A DNA stretch of 64,000 bases from positions 64,001 through 128,000 of the forward strand of contig CAWEPK010000007.1 in the NCBI GenBank assembly GCA_963810935.1, in the 5' to 3' direction. The position numbers are program-made. Within the stretch, counting starts at the first letter, position 1. Each line of letters starts with the position of its first letter. The stretch is from an uncultured delta proteobacterium (GTDB taxonomy: Bacteria; Desulfobacterota; Syntrophorhabdia; Syntrophorhabdales; WCHB1-27). Below are positions 33,001 to 42,000 of this stretch, in pieces.

Positions 33001-36000
33001 GGAAGAGCGCCTGTATCAGGAGTGCCACGGAGGCGGCAAGCACGCTTATACCGGGGCCAAGGAGTATCGCGGACATCCCCGTGCCGCACGGGTGCGAGCA
33101 TGTCCCCACAGTGGGCACGGGTATGGGCATGCACGAGATGACAAAGACCGCAGCGGCCATGAACCCGACCAGGGGCTTAAACGAAATGTCAATAGAAGAA
33201 AGCCGTTTCAGCCTGTATAGACCGTACACTACGAAAGGCGTTGCCACGACGAACCACAATACTGCCCAGGGCAGGGGAAGTATTCCCTCCGTGATGTGCA
33301 TGGCATGAACGGGGCAGGGGTCGAGCACATGAAAAAAAGTAAAGGTTGAAAAAGAAATGAAGGTCAGTAAAGCTTTTTTCATATTCCCTCCGAAATCAGC
33401 TATTGCAGTGTTCTAATGACAGTCCTCCGTTCCAGGCACAAAAAAATCCCCGGACCTGGATCTACCAGGTCCGGGGATACCGTTTTTCATCCTCCGAACA
33501 AAAAAAGCGACCGCCCCTTTACCACGGGGGACGAGTCTGTGTATAGCCTCCAAGAAGGTCTTCCGGCTTCCGGATCATATTACTTGCCGCGTCTTCCCAT
33601 CCCGCTTGGGCGGAACAGTGACATCGTGCGGCTTTCATCCCCGGTTACGGCGGCGGGTCCGCGACGGATTTGCACCGTCTTCCCTGTTATGGCCTATATG
33701 GCCTCTCGTGAGATATTTATCTATAAGCCATCGGCCGGGGGGAAGTCAAGCCTGTTTTGCGGAATTATCATTTGACAACAGTAAGAGTGCGTGCTAAATA
33801 CTCTATAGTCTAACGGGTAGTCGGAGGCCCTGGAAAGGGCCTTAAAAGGGAAGCCGGTGCGATTCCGGCACGGACCCGCCGCTGTGTGTGGGGACGAAAC
33901 CCGCTGATAGGCCACTGTGTCGCAAGCCTTAAAGACGAAGCGGCATGGGAAGGCGCGGGGAGTAGGGTGATCCACGAGTCAGAAGACCTGCCGCAAACCC
34001 GATAACACTTGGAGAAAAGGTAAATCCCCAGGCTGATTAAGATCAGTTTGGGGATTTTTTTTATGCCCCTTATTGATGAACGAGCTCAATTTCTCTTGAA
34101 AGGAGGTGACGGACATGAAGAAAGACGTGATCGCCTATCGCAAGTCCTGTAAGTCGAGCGGAGCGGGCCTGTCCCACTACATCATGGCAACGAAGAAGGA
34201 AGAGTAGTTTTAATTGCGAAACAGGAGACGCCCCGGTGCTTTTGCCGAGGCGTCTCCTGCAACGTCCCGGAAAGATCAGCTCTGGAGGTTTGCGGTGTCA
34301 AACGTCGGAACAAGTAACCATGCGTCATCGAGAGGTACATACTTCAATACCGGAAACGGGCCGACTATTCAACTTATCGATATAGGGCATCAGGATTATA
34401 TTGCCCTGCTGGCCCCTGAAACAGCCTTCTGGTCGCTTCTCAAGAAAGACAAGGTTGGAGAAGCCCTCTCCAACGGTCCTTTCATGGAGCAATATCGTGA
34501 AAAGGCTGCAAGTTTCTCCGCCGAAATGGAGACGCTCCGCTTCGGTCTCAGCCCCGGCGCTGTTTATTTCAATCCGACAGAGAGGTGTAACCTCAATTGC
34601 GATTATTGCTATATCCCTGAGGCCATGCGGAAAAACGGCGAGCACATGTCGGAGGAAGCGCTGTTCGAGGCATTGGCTATACTGCAAGAGCACTTCGCGG
34701 AAACGGTAACGGACGGACGGCGCCCCCAGGTCGTCTTCCACGGCTCGGAGCCAATGATGGCCCGCAAGGTCGTGTTTGCGGCCATCGAACGCTATAAGGA
34801 TGCTTTCCTTTTCGGGATACAGACAAACGGGACGCTGCTGGATGACGCCGCCGTAGAATTCCTGACGGAGCGCGGCATCAGCATCGGTCTGTCCCTTGAC
34901 GGTCACGTCGGGGAGTTAGCGGACGCGGCCAGGAGGAACTGGGACGGAGCGGGCGTCTCCGGGAAGGTCGTCTCCGTCATCAGGAAGCTGCGGAACTATG
35001 AGAATTACAGCGTCATCTGCACCGTAACGCAACGGAACATGGAGGCCCTGCCCGATATCGTAGACCACTTCCATTCCCTGGGTATCCCCTCCTGTATGCT
35101 CAACCCTGTGCGGTGCACGCTGCCCGGCGGCCGCAACCTCAAACCGCAAGACCATGAGCTGGCAGGCCATTACCTCAAGGCCCTGGACCGGAATTACGAA
35201 TTGTACCGGACAACGGGCCGAAAGATGGTAGTCGCAAATTTTGCCAATGTCTTGTTGAGCATCGTCGCCCCGACCGCGCGCCGGCTCATGTGCGATATAT
35301 CCCCGTGCGGCGGCGGTCGCTGCTTCTTCGCCGTTTCTGCAAAAGGAGACCTCTTCCCGTGCAGCGAGTTCATAGGGATCCCGGAGTTTTGCGGGGGAAA
35401 CCTTTTCAAGGGCGAGATCAGACAGGCCCTCGATAGCCCCGCCTTCAAGAAAGTCACCGGCCGCCTTATCGAAAGGATCGAGCCGTGCGCCTCCTGCGCC
35501 GTCCGCCATTTCTGCGGTTCGCCGTGTCCGGCGGAAGCCTACGCAATGAACGGCGGAATCGACCGGCCGGGCGCATTTTGCGAGTCTGTACGAAGAACAG
35601 GTTCGCTACGCCTTGCGGGTGATAGCCGACGGCAGGGAAGACGAGTACCTGTGGGACAATTGGGACGCGGATACGACAACCAGCATGAACATCACGTCTC
35701 TTTGAGGCGACGCAAGGGCGCAGGGAAGAACGGAAAAGAAGAAGGGGACGGGCTGCTTTTTTCAAGTCTGTCGAGCGAAACATGAAGGCTATTTGTTGAT
35801 GCTCGTTACTTCAGTTGTGGCGATGCCCAACAAGATACCGAATATGGCGCCGGTTCATCCCTTCCTGCGAGCGCCTGTCCGGCTGAGTCGCTAGTTTTGG
35901 TAGGAGAAAGTGTTGCTGTCGCCAACCGGACGTCGCCATCGGGTTCGTCTGCAAAGAAGGGCCAGTATCAATCTTTTCGTCTTCCGGGATCATACTCCCC

Positions 36001-39000: not shown

Positions 39001-42000
39001 ACTGGCCGGGCATCCTCCAGGCAAGGGACGTTTCATACTCATATCACGGGAAGATCACCGCGTTGTCCGGCGTCACGCTCGACATCCCGGAAGGCCGGAT
39101 AGTGGCTGTCATAGGCTCCAACGGATGCGGCAAATCGACGCTCCTCCACGTGCTCGACGGCCTGGTCTACCCCGCTTCCGGCGCGGTGCTATTCAAGGGG
39201 GCGGAGGTGAGCGAGCGCTCCCTGAAGGACCCGCAGTTTTTGCGCCGCTTCAGGGGGGAGGTCGGCTATGTCTTCCAGGATTCGGACGTCCAGCTATTCT
39301 GCCCGACCGTGCTCGACGAGTTGAAGTTCGGGCCTTTGCAGCTCGGCCTCGGCGACAAAGAGGCGCAGGATAGGGGCATGCAGGTGCTGGAGATGCTGGA
39401 GGTAAGCGCCCTAGCGGACAGGCCGCCGTACATGCTTTCGTCAGGCGAGAAGAAGAGGGTGGCCCTGGGCGCGGCGCTTACCATGAACCCGGACGTCCTG
39501 CTGATGGACGAGCCGACGAACGGCCTCGACCCGAGGACGCAGGTTTTCCTGGTGGAGCTGGTCCTCGCCCTGAATGAGGCGGGCAAGACGATTGTGATCG
39601 CCACCCACGACCTGTCGCTGGTAAGCGAGCTGCGGTGCACGGTCGCGGTGCTTTCGGAAGCGCACGCGATCGAGCGCATCGGAGAATCGGAAGCGATACT
39701 TAACGACAACGAGCTTCTTTTAAAAGTGAACCTGATCCACGAGCACGTGCACTTCCACGGCGAAGTAGCCCACCGTCATATCCACTCGCATTACCTGTTC
39801 CATCGACATAACGAAAGTGCGAAAATAATATAAGAGTGAGCGAATTAACGTTCGCTAACGCGAGCGGACTAGCGCTTCGTATTGCTCGCTGTCCCAGCAC
39901 GAGCGGAAGAAACTGCACTCCCGGCATCGTTCTATCCGGCCCGTCTCTATCAGGTATCGCTTGCCCGACCTGTCGGTCACCCCGTGCTTTGCCATCTCGC
40001 CGATGCATGGGGGCGTCCCCGATTTGCAGCCGTGCCTGTTGTCGCAGTTGATGCAATAACTCATTTGCTTTGCAATATAAGATACAGGGTGGCGTGTTGC
40101 AAGGCAGGGGCGACGCAAGCCCCAGTAAGCCGTTACCGTCTCTTCCTTTTTATGAGGGGGTGGCTCCGCCAGCTTTGCTGGTGGAGGGGGCGACGCAAGC
40201 CCCAGTAATTGTTTTGCAGCCGTGCCTGTTGTCGCAGTTGATGCAGTAGCCCATATGTTTCCCGTTTGCCGTGAAGGCTGTTGCGAGCAATATAAGATAT
40301 GGTGCGGCCGGTTGCAAGCTGCCGGCCTGACGGCAGGGGCAAAATATAGATTGTCCGGCCCGGCGCGTTCGGTGTTAGGATAGAATATGAGGGAGTTTAT
40401 GGTGCATGCTGCGGACGGGTGTAATTTCGTGTTCGGGGAGGCGACCATCGCCGGCATACACGCCGCGATGAAGGCGGGCAGGCTCACCGCCAGGCAGCTA
40501 GTCGAGATGTACCTCGCCCGCATCGAGGCCTACGACAAAAAAGGGCCGGCGATTAACGCCGTGATCCTGGTCAACCCCAACGCTGCCAAAGAGGCGGACG
40601 CACTCGACGGGAAGCTCAGGAAGTCGGGCTTTGTCGGGCCGCTGCACGGCATCCCGGTGCTCCTGAAAGACAACGTCGAGACCGCAGACATGGCGACGAC
40701 TGCCGGATCGTTGAGCCTCAAAGGCTTCATGCCGCCGGCCGACGCCCCGATAGTCGCCAGGATGCGGAAAGCCGGGGCGATAATCATCGCCAAGGCCAAC
40801 CTGCACGAATTTGCCATGGCGGGCGAGACGTTCAGCTCGATCGCCGGCCAGACCTTAAACCCATACGACCTTACGAGGACGCCGGGCGGATCGAGCGGCG
40901 GTACGGGCGCGGGCCTTGCCGCCGATTTCGCCGTCGCAGGCATAGGTACCGACACGGTCAACTCGGTGCGCTCCCCTGCCAGCGCCAACAGCATTGTCGG
41001 TATCAGGCCGACCATCGGCGTAGTGAGCAGGTCGGGCATCGTCCCGTACGCGCTGACGCAGGACACGGCAGGCGCCATGGCGCGCACAGTGGCAGATGCC
41101 GTGCTGCTGCTCGACGTCATCGCAGGCTATGACCCGCAGGATGCATCGACTGCCTGGGGTGTGGGCCGCATACCGGAGACATATACGGCGTTTCTTAAGA
41201 AAGGCGGGCTCAAAGGGGCGCGGATAGGCGTGCCTCGCGGCTTCTTCGGTACGGGGCCCGAGCACGCGGAGGTGAACGCGGCTGTTCGCGCCTCGATAGA
41301 GATGATGAAAAAGCACGCGGCGATTGTTGTCCCCTTCGACTGCGATATATCCACGGACAATCTGGTGTCGGACGTGAGCGTCCACACAATGGAGCTGAGG
41401 GACCACCTCGACGCCTACCTGAAATCGCGCAAGGCCCCGGTGAAATCGCTTGAGGAGGTCTATGCCTCGGGCAAGTTCCATCCCGGCATTGGAAGCATCA
41501 TCAGACAGGCACTCGGTCTTTCGACGAGCGACGTGGAGTACAAGGACCGGCTCATAAAAAGGGCGAGGCTTCAGGATGCGTTCATGAAGATCATGGCGGA
41601 CAACAGGCTCGACGCGATGATTTTCCCGCACCAGCGCTGCCTTGTAGCGCCGGTCGGCCGGACGCAGGCCGAAAGGCAGGGGATATTGACCTCCGCGACC
41701 GGGTTCCCCTCTATCGTGATGCCTGCCGGTTTTTCCGCGCCTTCGGAGACAGCGCCTATCGGCATGCCCATAGGCATCGAGCTTGTGGGCAGGCCGTGGA
41801 GCGATGGAGAGCTGATAAGGCTTGCCTACTGCCTGGAGCAAGCCGCGAAATCAAGAAGACCCCCGGTAAGCACCCCGTCCCTGCAACAATAAGCGGTCGG
41901 TCGTGCGAGGCCGTAGCACGTAATATAACCAATAATTACCAGCGGATGTATCACGATTGCAGTAGAGGGAAGGGGTGCCCTGAAACAGCCAAAACCGGCT

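Follow-up and report, generated by a model that had tools for sequence, protein, structure and literature searches.

The window analysed here is a 64,000-nt stretch of one contig from an uncultured delta proteobacterium. On its plus strand, a unit appeared to run from a promoter through a cobalamin riboswitch with terminator, a 30-aa peptide gene (cbpA) and a stem-loop to a radical SAM/SPASM maturase gene (cbpB). The promoter-like site (33772..33800), with TTGACA at 33772-33777 and TAAATA at 33795-33800 separated by 17 nt, was located directly 5' of the aptamer. It was read by eye within a block conserved in the sister genome L001, and was absent from the list produced by a consensus scan. The aptamer (33805..34009), with the L5 loop ACCCG, matched the full RF00174 model (positions 1-189) at 112.3 bits (gathering score 31.5). 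Folding revealed an expression platform at 34008..34065, in which a short hairpin (CUUGG at 34008-12 pairing with CCAGG at 34028-32) overlapped a 16-bp terminator (34022-34057) followed by a U-run. The terminator had a folding energy of -22.7 kcal/mol, versus -2.7 kcal/mol for the competing hairpin. With an aptamer above the gathering score and this terminator in its platform, the riboswitch belongs to RF00174.

The cbpA gene (34115..34207, +) encodes the precursor peptide MKKDVIAYRKSCKSSGAGLSHYIMATKKEE. Its best start was the ATG at 34115, with the ribosome-binding site aggagg. It lies directly 5' of cbpB, and its product scored 43.4 bits with TIGR04164, for which the cut-off is 35. A strong stem-loop lacking a U-run (34222..34259, +; -39.2 kcal/mol for a 101-nt fold, z -2.7) separated the two genes. 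CbpB (34295..35785, +), which most likely starts at the GTG at 34295, reached 657.1 bits with TIGR04163, above the equivalog cut-off of 375, and the alignment covered model positions 2-407 of 428. The survey's finding that these genes are cbpA and cbpB was thus borne out. The Radical_SAM (52.5 bits) and SPASM (23.4 bits) Pfam models also matched, and the translation contained a CX3CX2C motif (CNLNCDYC) together with the SPASM cysteines (CASCAVRHFCGSPC). The closest relative of solved structure was the thioether synthase CteB (5wgg, E 5.5e-30). The window copy deviates from the curated family in its C-terminus, where one extra C near 35586, compared with L001 and L002, introduced a +1 frameshift. 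The last ~38 codons are out of frame, so the window holds no full-length intact maturase; an intact tail would end at 35705, and L001 carries an intact ORF of 496 aa. The frameshift may be a sequencing error (compare the TonB receptor in the window, which is likewise split, into 3 ORFs), or it may leave cbpB inactive in this genome.

On the minus strand, a divergent unit (30883..33724) comprised a second RF00174 riboswitch (33536-33724, 103.9 bits), a terminator made of a hairpin and U-run (33478-33446), CbiM (33382-32624), a weakly CbiN-like ORF (32627-32343) and an OprB porin (32346-30883). The survey had described both riboswitches, with the second one pointing away to another cbiM, and our matches agreed. 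It had also proposed that the first riboswitch drives one operon running through a secreted 206-aa protein into a cbiMNQO transporter. Our comparisons point the other way, and the 206-aa gene and the transporter look like separate units beside the cassette, outside a single riboswitch-driven operon.

The 206-aa lipoprotein-like ORF (36104..36724, +) matched no Pfam or NCBIfam family. Searches by tblastn found no relative at any of 46 genome or 80 metagenome loci, and its slot in L001 was occupied by a Cu/Zn superoxide dismutase gene (sodC). By these comparisons the ORF is strain-specific cargo outside the CbpA/CbpB cassette, and not the system component for which it had been taken. The genes further downstream (37029..39833, +) matched the profiles of an ECF metal importer. 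The CbiM/NikM-like protein, first called at 36993-37712, most likely starts with the CTG at 37029, giving MHIPDG. It was followed by a PDGLE-like protein with two transmembrane segments (37713-38084; 26.4 bits, just under the PDGLE cut-off of 27), CbiQ (38074-38997) and an ECF ATPase ending at 39833. The scores supporting CbiM, CbiQ and CbiO were 222.8 for PF01891, 91.9 for PF02361, 125 for TIGR02454 and 107.9 bits for ABC_tran. No CbiN was found in this transporter, contrary to its designation as cbiMNQO; the ORF after CbiM matched only PDGLE and the C-terminal portion of a CbiM fusion model. A passage in Zhang et al. (2009, PMC2667541) describes CbiN as cobalt-specific and NikN/K/L as nickel-specific.

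The spacer between cbpB and cbiM was non-homologous even when compared with a genome whose CbpB is 97% identical. Homology resumed at a second promoter-like site, TTGACA-17-TAAACT (36915-36943, +), conserved in L001 from 36902 on. Together with a leader whose terminator-like hairpin (36948-37006; -36.4 kcal/mol, z -2.6) is followed by U7, this site occupies 36915..37013, ahead of cbiM. No RF00174 match was seen within 35600-37100 at E values up to 10, and no NikR box (GTGTTAC-N13/14-GTAACAC) near cbiM with up to 3 mismatches. Apart from the leader hairpin, no canonical terminator was found between cbpB and cbiM, and transcription from cbpB may read through into cbiM.

CbpA/CbpB is already a curated family, as the survey had acknowledged, and in many bacteria it accompanies genes for B12 synthesis and for cobalt. 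The window locus passes both NCBIfam models (TIGR04164, 'cobo_pep'; TIGR04163, 'rSAM_cobopep') and shares their gene order and peptide core. The literature searched on this family offered names, without described chemistry or function. An ORF homologous to cbpA preceded cbpB in all 45 assessable genome loci and 63 of the 65 from metagenomes, and the window core, RKSC...GAGLSHYIM, aligned with these 45 genome and 63 metagenome peptides. The His was invariant in the genome set (45/45). The Cys, which had been called invariant, was present in 106 of all 108 peptides and was replaced by Lys in 2 of the 45 from genomes; in Chlorobaculum this single Cys is dispensable. Tyr was changed to Phe once in each set, and the distance from Cys to GLSH varied from 5 to 7 residues.

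The association with the riboswitch was stronger than the 22 of 40 loci noted before. Among 42 assessable genomes of other species, 40 carried RF00174 on the same strand directly before cbpA, and one further locus had a sub-threshold match. The 3' end of the riboswitch fell 140-330 nt before the GLSHY codons. Chance can be excluded, since the window genome contains only 5 RF00174 matches in 4.06 Mb. Another 14 genomes of the phylum had the element immediately before the pair in 13 cases, and a custom nhmmer profile placed it upstream in 30 of the 55 metagenome loci that could be assessed. Of the 25 metagenome loci without it, 23 had a same-strand cobamide-pathway or B12-uptake gene beside the pair, either on both sides or directly upstream (17) or downstream only (6), as in cbiA-cbiC-[cbpAB]-cbiK/cbiX/cbiM. 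These arrangements support the assignment of CbpA/CbpB to the cobamide regulon.

Among the 80 nearest relatives from metagenomes, 39 had a cobamide gene as the first same-strand gene after cbpB, and the ratio was 37/66 for loci with at least 400 nt downstream. The proposed link to cobalt held in so far as a cobalt importer or chelatase recurred in this position in 15 of the 80 loci (CbiM 9, CbiK 3, CbiX 2, CbtA+CbiX 1), with a gap of 3-60 nt in 8 of them. It was not exclusive, however, as cobU/cobT/cobC were nearly as frequent (14). A recurrent connection of CbpA/CbpB to cobalt genes is nonetheless supported by these neighbourhoods. CbiC was present in 37 of 42 CbpB genomes. Across 201 genomes of the phylum it occurred in 17 of 19 with CbpB versus 70 of 182 without (Fisher p 2.8e-5, with kin not independent), an enrichment of CbpB carriers for corrin-ring synthesis. 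Both CbiC and CbiD were missing from 5 of the 42, including a 5.2-Mb genome with CbiB and only 2 TP_methylase matches. The cassette may therefore also exist in corrinoid salvagers, though genome incompleteness could explain the missing genes. In two of the three samples the cassette was mostly surrounded by unrelated genes, which means that most of the evidence for operons stems from a single clade.

We consider the window locus an ordinary member of the curated cassette whose matured peptide would be an intracellular accessory factor of cobamide biosynthesis, mostly by the anaerobic route, and we give this reading a probability of roughly 0.6. In CbpA, the conserved stretch (I/V)-x-x-R-(K/R) would presumably be the docking site for CbpB, and the nearly invariant core G-L-S-H-Y-(I/V)-(L/M) the part that CbpB would go on to modify. 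Among the scanned neighbours of the cassette neither an exporter nor a leader protease recurred, which makes it most likely that the matured peptide remains intracellular and makes a secreted cobaltophore, as the survey had envisaged, unlikely. The cassette would be expressed either behind a dedicated corrinoid riboswitch or from within cbi/cob operons, and the peptide is likely made only when cobamide is short. Candidate steps are the delivery or chelation of cobalt and the assembly of the nucleotide loop, whose genes are equally frequent as neighbours.

A narrowed form of the survey's reading, more specific but doubtful, is that the matured peptide binds Co(II). It would do so for extracellular capture or, more plausibly, for handing the metal inside the cell from an importer (CbiMNQO or CbtA) to the anaerobic chelatases CbiK/CbiX; we regard such an intracellular metallochaperone as rather unlikely too. 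The importers and chelatases that follow cbpB in 15 of the 39 loci, the recurrent order cbiC-[cbpAB]-cbiK/cbiX/cbiM, the CbiC enrichment and the conservation of His and Cys agree with it, as does Chlorobaculum, where the cassette lies between riboswitch-controlled TonB-receptor and cbiMNQO units. Yet cobU/cobT/cobC follow cbpB as often (14/39), 16 of the 18 CbpB-positive genomes sampled from the phylum have no CbiN, and some carriers lack CbiC/CbiD. The Cys and Tyr substitutions and the variable Cys spacing leave few fixed ligands, and the enzymes nearest CbpB form thioethers, which would use up the CbpA thiol. If the reading is true, CbpA would fill the role that CobW, a GTPase serving as GTP-dependent cobalt chaperone, plays in the aerobic pathway, as the first metallochaperone among RiPPs. 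CobW would then be a functional analogue for the putative transfer to CbiK/CbiX, unrelated in sequence and making.

Known systems resemble the cassette in part. Methanobactin is a RiPP metallophore whose operons contain export and TonB-receptor genes and whose peptide gains dedicated chelating groups. CbpA shares with it a ribosomal peptide linked to the supply of one metal, but among the neighbours scanned no export, re-uptake or TonB-receptor genes recur with cbpAB, nor does a dedicated receptor. The SCIFF/CteB pair is likewise a two-gene system of short peptide and radical SAM/SPASM enzyme with neither exporter nor protease. SCIFF peptides have six Cys and receive thioethers, whereas CbpA has one Cys, and its cassette goes together with corrinoid riboswitches and cbi operons. 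PqqA/PqqE and mycofactocin MftA/MftC also combine a small ribosomal peptide with a radical SAM/SPASM enzyme in an intracellular role. Both need further conserved tailoring genes beside the pair, while with cbpAB none recurred except Diphthami_syn_2 and Asn_synthase-like genes (6 metagenome loci).

Somewhat less probable still is a role in the late steps of cobamide assembly or in the handling of corrinoids, for instance with the His as axial ligand of incomplete corrinoids, under a riboswitch that turns cbpA on in response to corrinoids. The cobU/cobT/cobC or cobS genes after cbpB in several loci would fit, and the cbpA platforms form a class apart. Their hairpin loop, xAUGG(U/A/C)AAA, was found by pattern in 38 of 41 cbpA leaders and by eye in the other 3, but in only 5 of 40 other RF00174 elements of CbpB-carrying genomes. 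These 40 controls precede uptake and biosynthesis genes. The cbpA terminators were longer than those of the other riboswitches (median 19 bp and -28.9 kcal/mol versus 12 bp and -18.9), the competing hairpin was weak (-5.3), and no aptamer strand complementary to the terminator arm was found (median z -0.07, 3 of 36 below -2). Read-through without ligand is thus hard to explain. The cbpA aptamers scored 60-86 bits, while most other RF00174 elements exceeded 100 bits. The riboswitch before cbpA in the window, however, reaches 112 bits and has a control-like terminator of 16 bp with 5 nt free. The pair is also often internal to cbi operons led by genes of the early pathway, which are classically repressed. 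A passage of Procknow et al. (2023, PMC10653944) gives an overlap criterion for activating corrinoid riboswitches, illustrated by Alkalihalobacillus halodurans cobT, where the 3' strand of a hairpin following P1 is shared with the 5' arm of the terminator. Such a P13-like hairpin was present here, but equally in 38 of the 40 controls. Since the CbpB-carrying genomes also show this layout in front of btuB, cbiK, cobN and cbiC, it does not tell whether the cbpA switch activates or represses.

A product outside cobamide supply, such as a B12-sparing substitute or a peptide that acts on neighbouring cells to free corrinoids, is very improbable. In its favour, the cassette stands alone among unrelated genes at most genome loci, and Rodionov et al. 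(2004, PMC545781) place B12-independent isozymes under B12 riboswitches as well. Against it, the scanned neighbours included no recurrent gene for immunity, export or a partner enzyme, the pair is embedded in biosynthesis operons, and its carriers are enriched among corrin producers.

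The survey's finding of a cobalamin riboswitch (Rfam RF00174) ahead of the 30-aa precursor peptide gene cbpA and its radical SAM/SPASM maturase gene cbpB was confirmed by the Rfam aptamers and by scores above both NCBIfam cut-offs. Two full-length aptamers lie back to back, at 33805-34009 on the + strand (112.3 bits) and at 33536-33724 on the - strand (103.9 bits), with a G+C-rich hairpin and then a U-run behind each of them. On the + strand, a promoter-like TTGACA-17-TAAATA read by eye (33772-33800) precedes the aptamer, and a 16-bp terminator (34022-34057) lies between the aptamer and cbpA (34115-34207), which has an AGGAGG ribosome-binding site ahead of it. 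A strong stem-loop (34222-34259, +) separates cbpA from cbpB, which runs from 34295 (+) with GTG as the most likely start. CbpA scored 43.4 bits against the curated cut-off of 35, and CbpB 657 bits against 375. The CX3CX2C and SPASM cysteine motifs are present in CbpB, and among its solved relatives the thioether synthase CteB is the nearest. The locus is a true member, though an ordinary one, of the curated, uncharacterised CbpA/CbpB family. Our literature searches found no paper on this family.

Compared with two relatives, whose CbpB is 97% and 83% identical, cbpB here contains one extra C near 35586, which leaves the last ~38 codons in the wrong frame. This would be either a mutation or an assembly error. 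The TonB-dependent receptor gene at 27624-29743 (-), downstream of the divergent riboswitch unit, is also broken, into three ORFs (Plug, barrel and barrel), followed by ExbB, ExbD and TonB. It is either a pseudogene or the product of assembly indel errors, which bears on the question of the cbpB frameshift. On the - strand (20908-23218 and 24297-24936), a DNA methylase stands beside an MTaX1/HNH protein, and just past the TonB gene there is an addiction module of the Gp49-like/HI1420 type.

The riboswitch link of the cbpAB pair was near-universal, so that the regulon claim of the survey was right and can be put more strongly. From species-representative genomes 47 loci were taken, and 42 remained after one that is no orthologue (L047, 25% identity) and four with short upstream DNA were left out. 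A same-strand RF00174 was upstream of cbpA in 40 of the 42, its 3' end 140-330 nt ahead of the GLSHY codons, and one of the two exceptions had a sub-threshold match of 24 bits. CbpB was present in 19 of 201 genomes of the window's phylum (at least 90% complete, HMM-based sample), with the riboswitch directly upstream in 13 of the 14 checked. Chance could be excluded because the window's genome has only five RF00174 in 4.06 Mb. Among the 80 closest of 569 metagenome relatives (59-80% identity), 30 of the 55 loci that could be assessed had a riboswitch no more than 800 nt upstream, which is a lower bound, the nhmmer profile built from our own aptamer set being less sensitive than a covariance model. 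The carriers of CbpB included Desulfobacterota-type lineages, Chlorobaculum, Aromatoleum/Azoarcus, Phaeospirillum/Magnetospirillum, Rhodoblastus and Magnetococcales, as well as Kiritimatiellota, Lentisphaerae/Victivallales, Planctomycetota, Verrucomicrobia, one Dehalococcoidales MAG and one actinomycete MAG. Azoarcus sp. Aa7 has two riboswitch-cbpA-cbpB copies (L016 and L017) with identical peptides on different contigs.

CbpB showed a link to de novo cobamide synthesis. CbiC was found in 37 of 42 CbpB genomes. In the phylum sample, 17 of the 19 CbpB carriers had it, versus 70 of the 182 other genomes (Fisher p 2.8e-5, in a sample where kin are not independent). The five carriers lacking CbiC also lacked CbiD, while four had CbiB, and their TP_methylase matches numbered 1, 2, 0, 3 and 4. 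Judging by these counts, the 5.2-Mb Lentisphaerae genome, at least, may be that of a salvager; alternatively, these MAGs are incomplete. A riboswitch-led cluster, cobU-cobT-cbiA-cbiB-cobD-cbiP-cbiX~cbiC, with a third CbiM and a CbiQ, is present in the genome of the window. The CbiN profile was tried as a marker and gave no separation, with matches in 2 of 18 CbpB-positive genomes versus 3 of 62 CbpB-negative corrin producers. Behind another full-length cobalamin riboswitch of this genome (100 bits; contig C8, 771178-771379, or 379-580 of the extracted locus L049) lies a gene for an aldehyde:ferredoxin oxidoreductase (AFOR_N, AFOR_C; L049 ORF 795-2825), which is no usual B12-regulon member.

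The gene context of cbpAB depends on the clade, as seen in three samples that were all picked by similarity or phylum and are thus not unbiased. In the species genomes, most neighbours were unrelated and many were convergent, and cobamide genes stood beside cbpAB only in the sister genome of the window (L001), in L003 (cbiB, cobD / cbpAB / cobS, cobC) and in both Chlorobaculum loci, where three riboswitch units (TonB receptor, cbpAB and cbiMNQO) form a row; L014 and L005 were weaker cases. Of the 16 loci in the phylum sample, two were followed on the same strand by cobT or cobT-cobS, one had convergent cbiB/cbiP and 13 had unrelated genes. Of the 25 assessable metagenome loci without a riboswitch match, 23 had a same-strand cobamide-pathway or B12-uptake gene adjoining cbpAB, on both sides or directly upstream in 17 and only downstream in six. 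Examples of the 17 are cbiA-cbiC-[cbpAB]-cbiK, -cbiX or -cbiM-cbiN-cbiQ-cbiO, cbiB-cobD-[cbpAB]-Diphthami_syn_2-btuF and cobS-[cbpAB]-methylase. A cobamide gene was the next same-strand gene in 39 of all 80 metagenome loci (37 of 66 when only loci with 400 nt or more of downstream DNA are counted), namely CobU/CobT/CobC in 14, CbiM in nine, TP_methylase in four, CbiK and Diphthami_syn_2 in three each, CbiX and BtuR in two each, and CbtA+CbiX and BtuF in one each. No neighbour scan revealed a recurrent exporter, peptidase or receptor near cbpAB. The survey had read CbpA as a cobalt-handling peptide; the link to cobalt genes is real, but it is not exclusive, and the cobalt reading stays one live hypothesis among several. 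In cob operons, a Diphthami_syn_2 gene (PP-loop ATPase), sometimes with an Asn_synthase-like gene, adjoins cbpAB (L096, L098, L135, L154, L156 and L161), and these genes are candidates for further peptide tailoring or corrinoid amidation.

All 45 genome loci that could be assessed had a CbpA ORF ahead of cbpB, as did 63 of 65 from metagenomes. The peptides share the pattern (I/V)-x-x-R-(K/R)-x-C-x(5-7)-G-L-S-H-Y-(I/V/L)-(L/M) with a basic tail behind it, and their N-terminal regions differ widely in length. Among the 45 genome peptides, the His had no exception. The Tyr and the Ser were each kept in 44, with Phe and Ala as the respective replacements, which also occurred in one and two of the 63 metagenome peptides. 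The Cys, described as invariant in the survey because its search pattern demanded Cys, was kept in all 63 metagenome peptides and in 43 of the 45 genome peptides; both Chlorobaculum loci have Lys instead.

Few cofactor pathways are mapped as well as cobamide synthesis, yet its regulon contains, over at least 10 phylum-level groups, a conserved peptide and radical-enzyme module of uncharacterised chemistry and role. If CbpA serves the cobalt step or the handling of corrinoids, it would be a missing component of the anaerobic pathway, and an orphan RiPP family would gain a function as well. The contribution here is comparative, consisting of the near-universal riboswitch link, the embedding in cbi operons where the riboswitch is absent, the non-exclusive tie to cobalt, and the failure of a published activating-riboswitch rule, as worded in the sections drawn on, to discriminate in these genomes.

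The window and the sister genome are homologous over 33762-35787 and 36902-39856, and the 1.1 kb between them differs. This slot holds a 206-aa lipoprotein-like ORF in the window and a periplasmic Cu/Zn superoxide dismutase in the sister genome. No family was found for the 206-aa protein (ESM Atlas gave unnamed hypothetical clusters only), and none of 126 other loci had a relative, so the protein does not appear to be part of the system as had been supposed. Just downstream of the point where homology resumes, a promoter-like TTGACA-17-TAAACT (36915-36943, +) is followed by a leader with a long hairpin and U7 (36948-37013, +; -36.4 kcal/mol, z -2.6), a ribosome-binding site and a CTG start. 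CbiM most likely starts at this CTG (37029), behind AAGGAGAGG, with the N-terminus MHIPDG. The hairpin (~60 nt) and U7 are conserved, gave no Rfam match at E values of 10 or below, and could represent an unrecognised metal-responsive leader. No riboswitch-like match was found between cbpB and cbiM. The small partner of the + strand transporter is PDGLE-like, not CbiN, and resembles the nickel-type NikMN by the scheme in the consulted part of Zhang et al. 2009 (PMC2667541). No delta-proteobacterial NikR box was found near cbiM with the consensus as given in the consulted part of Rodionov et al. 2004 (PMC545781). Because of the homology break, the separate promoter-like site and leader, and the PDGLE-like partner, we read the region as three adjacent units, probably comprising the riboswitch with cbpAB, a cargo gene that varies, and an ECF importer that would take up cobalt or nickel and be under control of its own. 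The single operon from cbpAB into cbiMNQO proposed by the survey is not borne out here, given the non-homologous spacer, the separate promoter-like site and the missing CbiN. Such fusions do occur in other lineages, with gaps of 3-60 nt and a CbiN-like partner. The divergent unit (30883-33724, -) encodes CbiM, an ORF weakly similar to CbiN and a porin of the OprB family, without CbiQ or CbiO, and its CbiM possibly shares the nearest Q/O pair, on the + strand. An outer-membrane channel inside the cobalt unit was also seen in Chlorobaculum and in locus L100, there as Phenol_MetA_deg.

The riboswitch in the cbpA leader probably represses, with a probability of about two in three. The alternative is that it is an activating switch, as proposed from the rule in the relevant sections of Procknow et al. 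2023 (PMC10653944), in which the P13 3' strand is common with the 5' arm of the terminator. The cbpA leaders do contain a short hairpin that overlaps the terminator and has the loop xAUGG(U/A/C)AAA, 38 of 41 by pattern and the other three by eye. Among the leaders are a window type and a GAUGGUAAA type. However, the same hairpin-terminator overlap was seen in the controls, 40 other RF00174 from 14 CbpB-carrying genomes, 27 of which have a loop of the YGGGUGC type. The overlap rule was rejected as non-discriminating because of this shared layout. The controls precede CbiK (11), TonB receptors (10), FecCD (3), CbiC (3), CobN (2) and similar genes. The embedding of cbpAB in cbi operons also favours ordinary repression over activation. 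No strand complementary to the terminator arm, as an aptamer-derived antiterminator, was found in the cbpA-leader aptamers.

By loop, terminator length and aptamer score, the cbpA leaders appear to be a class of their own. Their terminators have a median of 19 bp and -28.9 kcal/mol, versus 12 bp and -18.9 in the controls, and their aptamers score 60-86 bits, while most other RF00174 exceed 100. The window riboswitch is atypical for the class in its 112 bits, its loop GAAAAGGUAAA and its 16-bp terminator. The cbpA riboswitches may constitute a divergent aptamer subclass, to which the riboswitch in the window is an exception. In 11 of 13 genomes, the cbpA riboswitch was the lowest-scoring RF00174, with one lower match each in G079 and G047, and several matched only model positions 47-167 (14 CbpB-carrying genomes). 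Another cobalamin riboswitch of a CbpB-carrying genome, with a GUGGUAAA-type loop, precedes a different radical SAM gene without a SPASM match at locus L076 (G073:C20:8226-9735).
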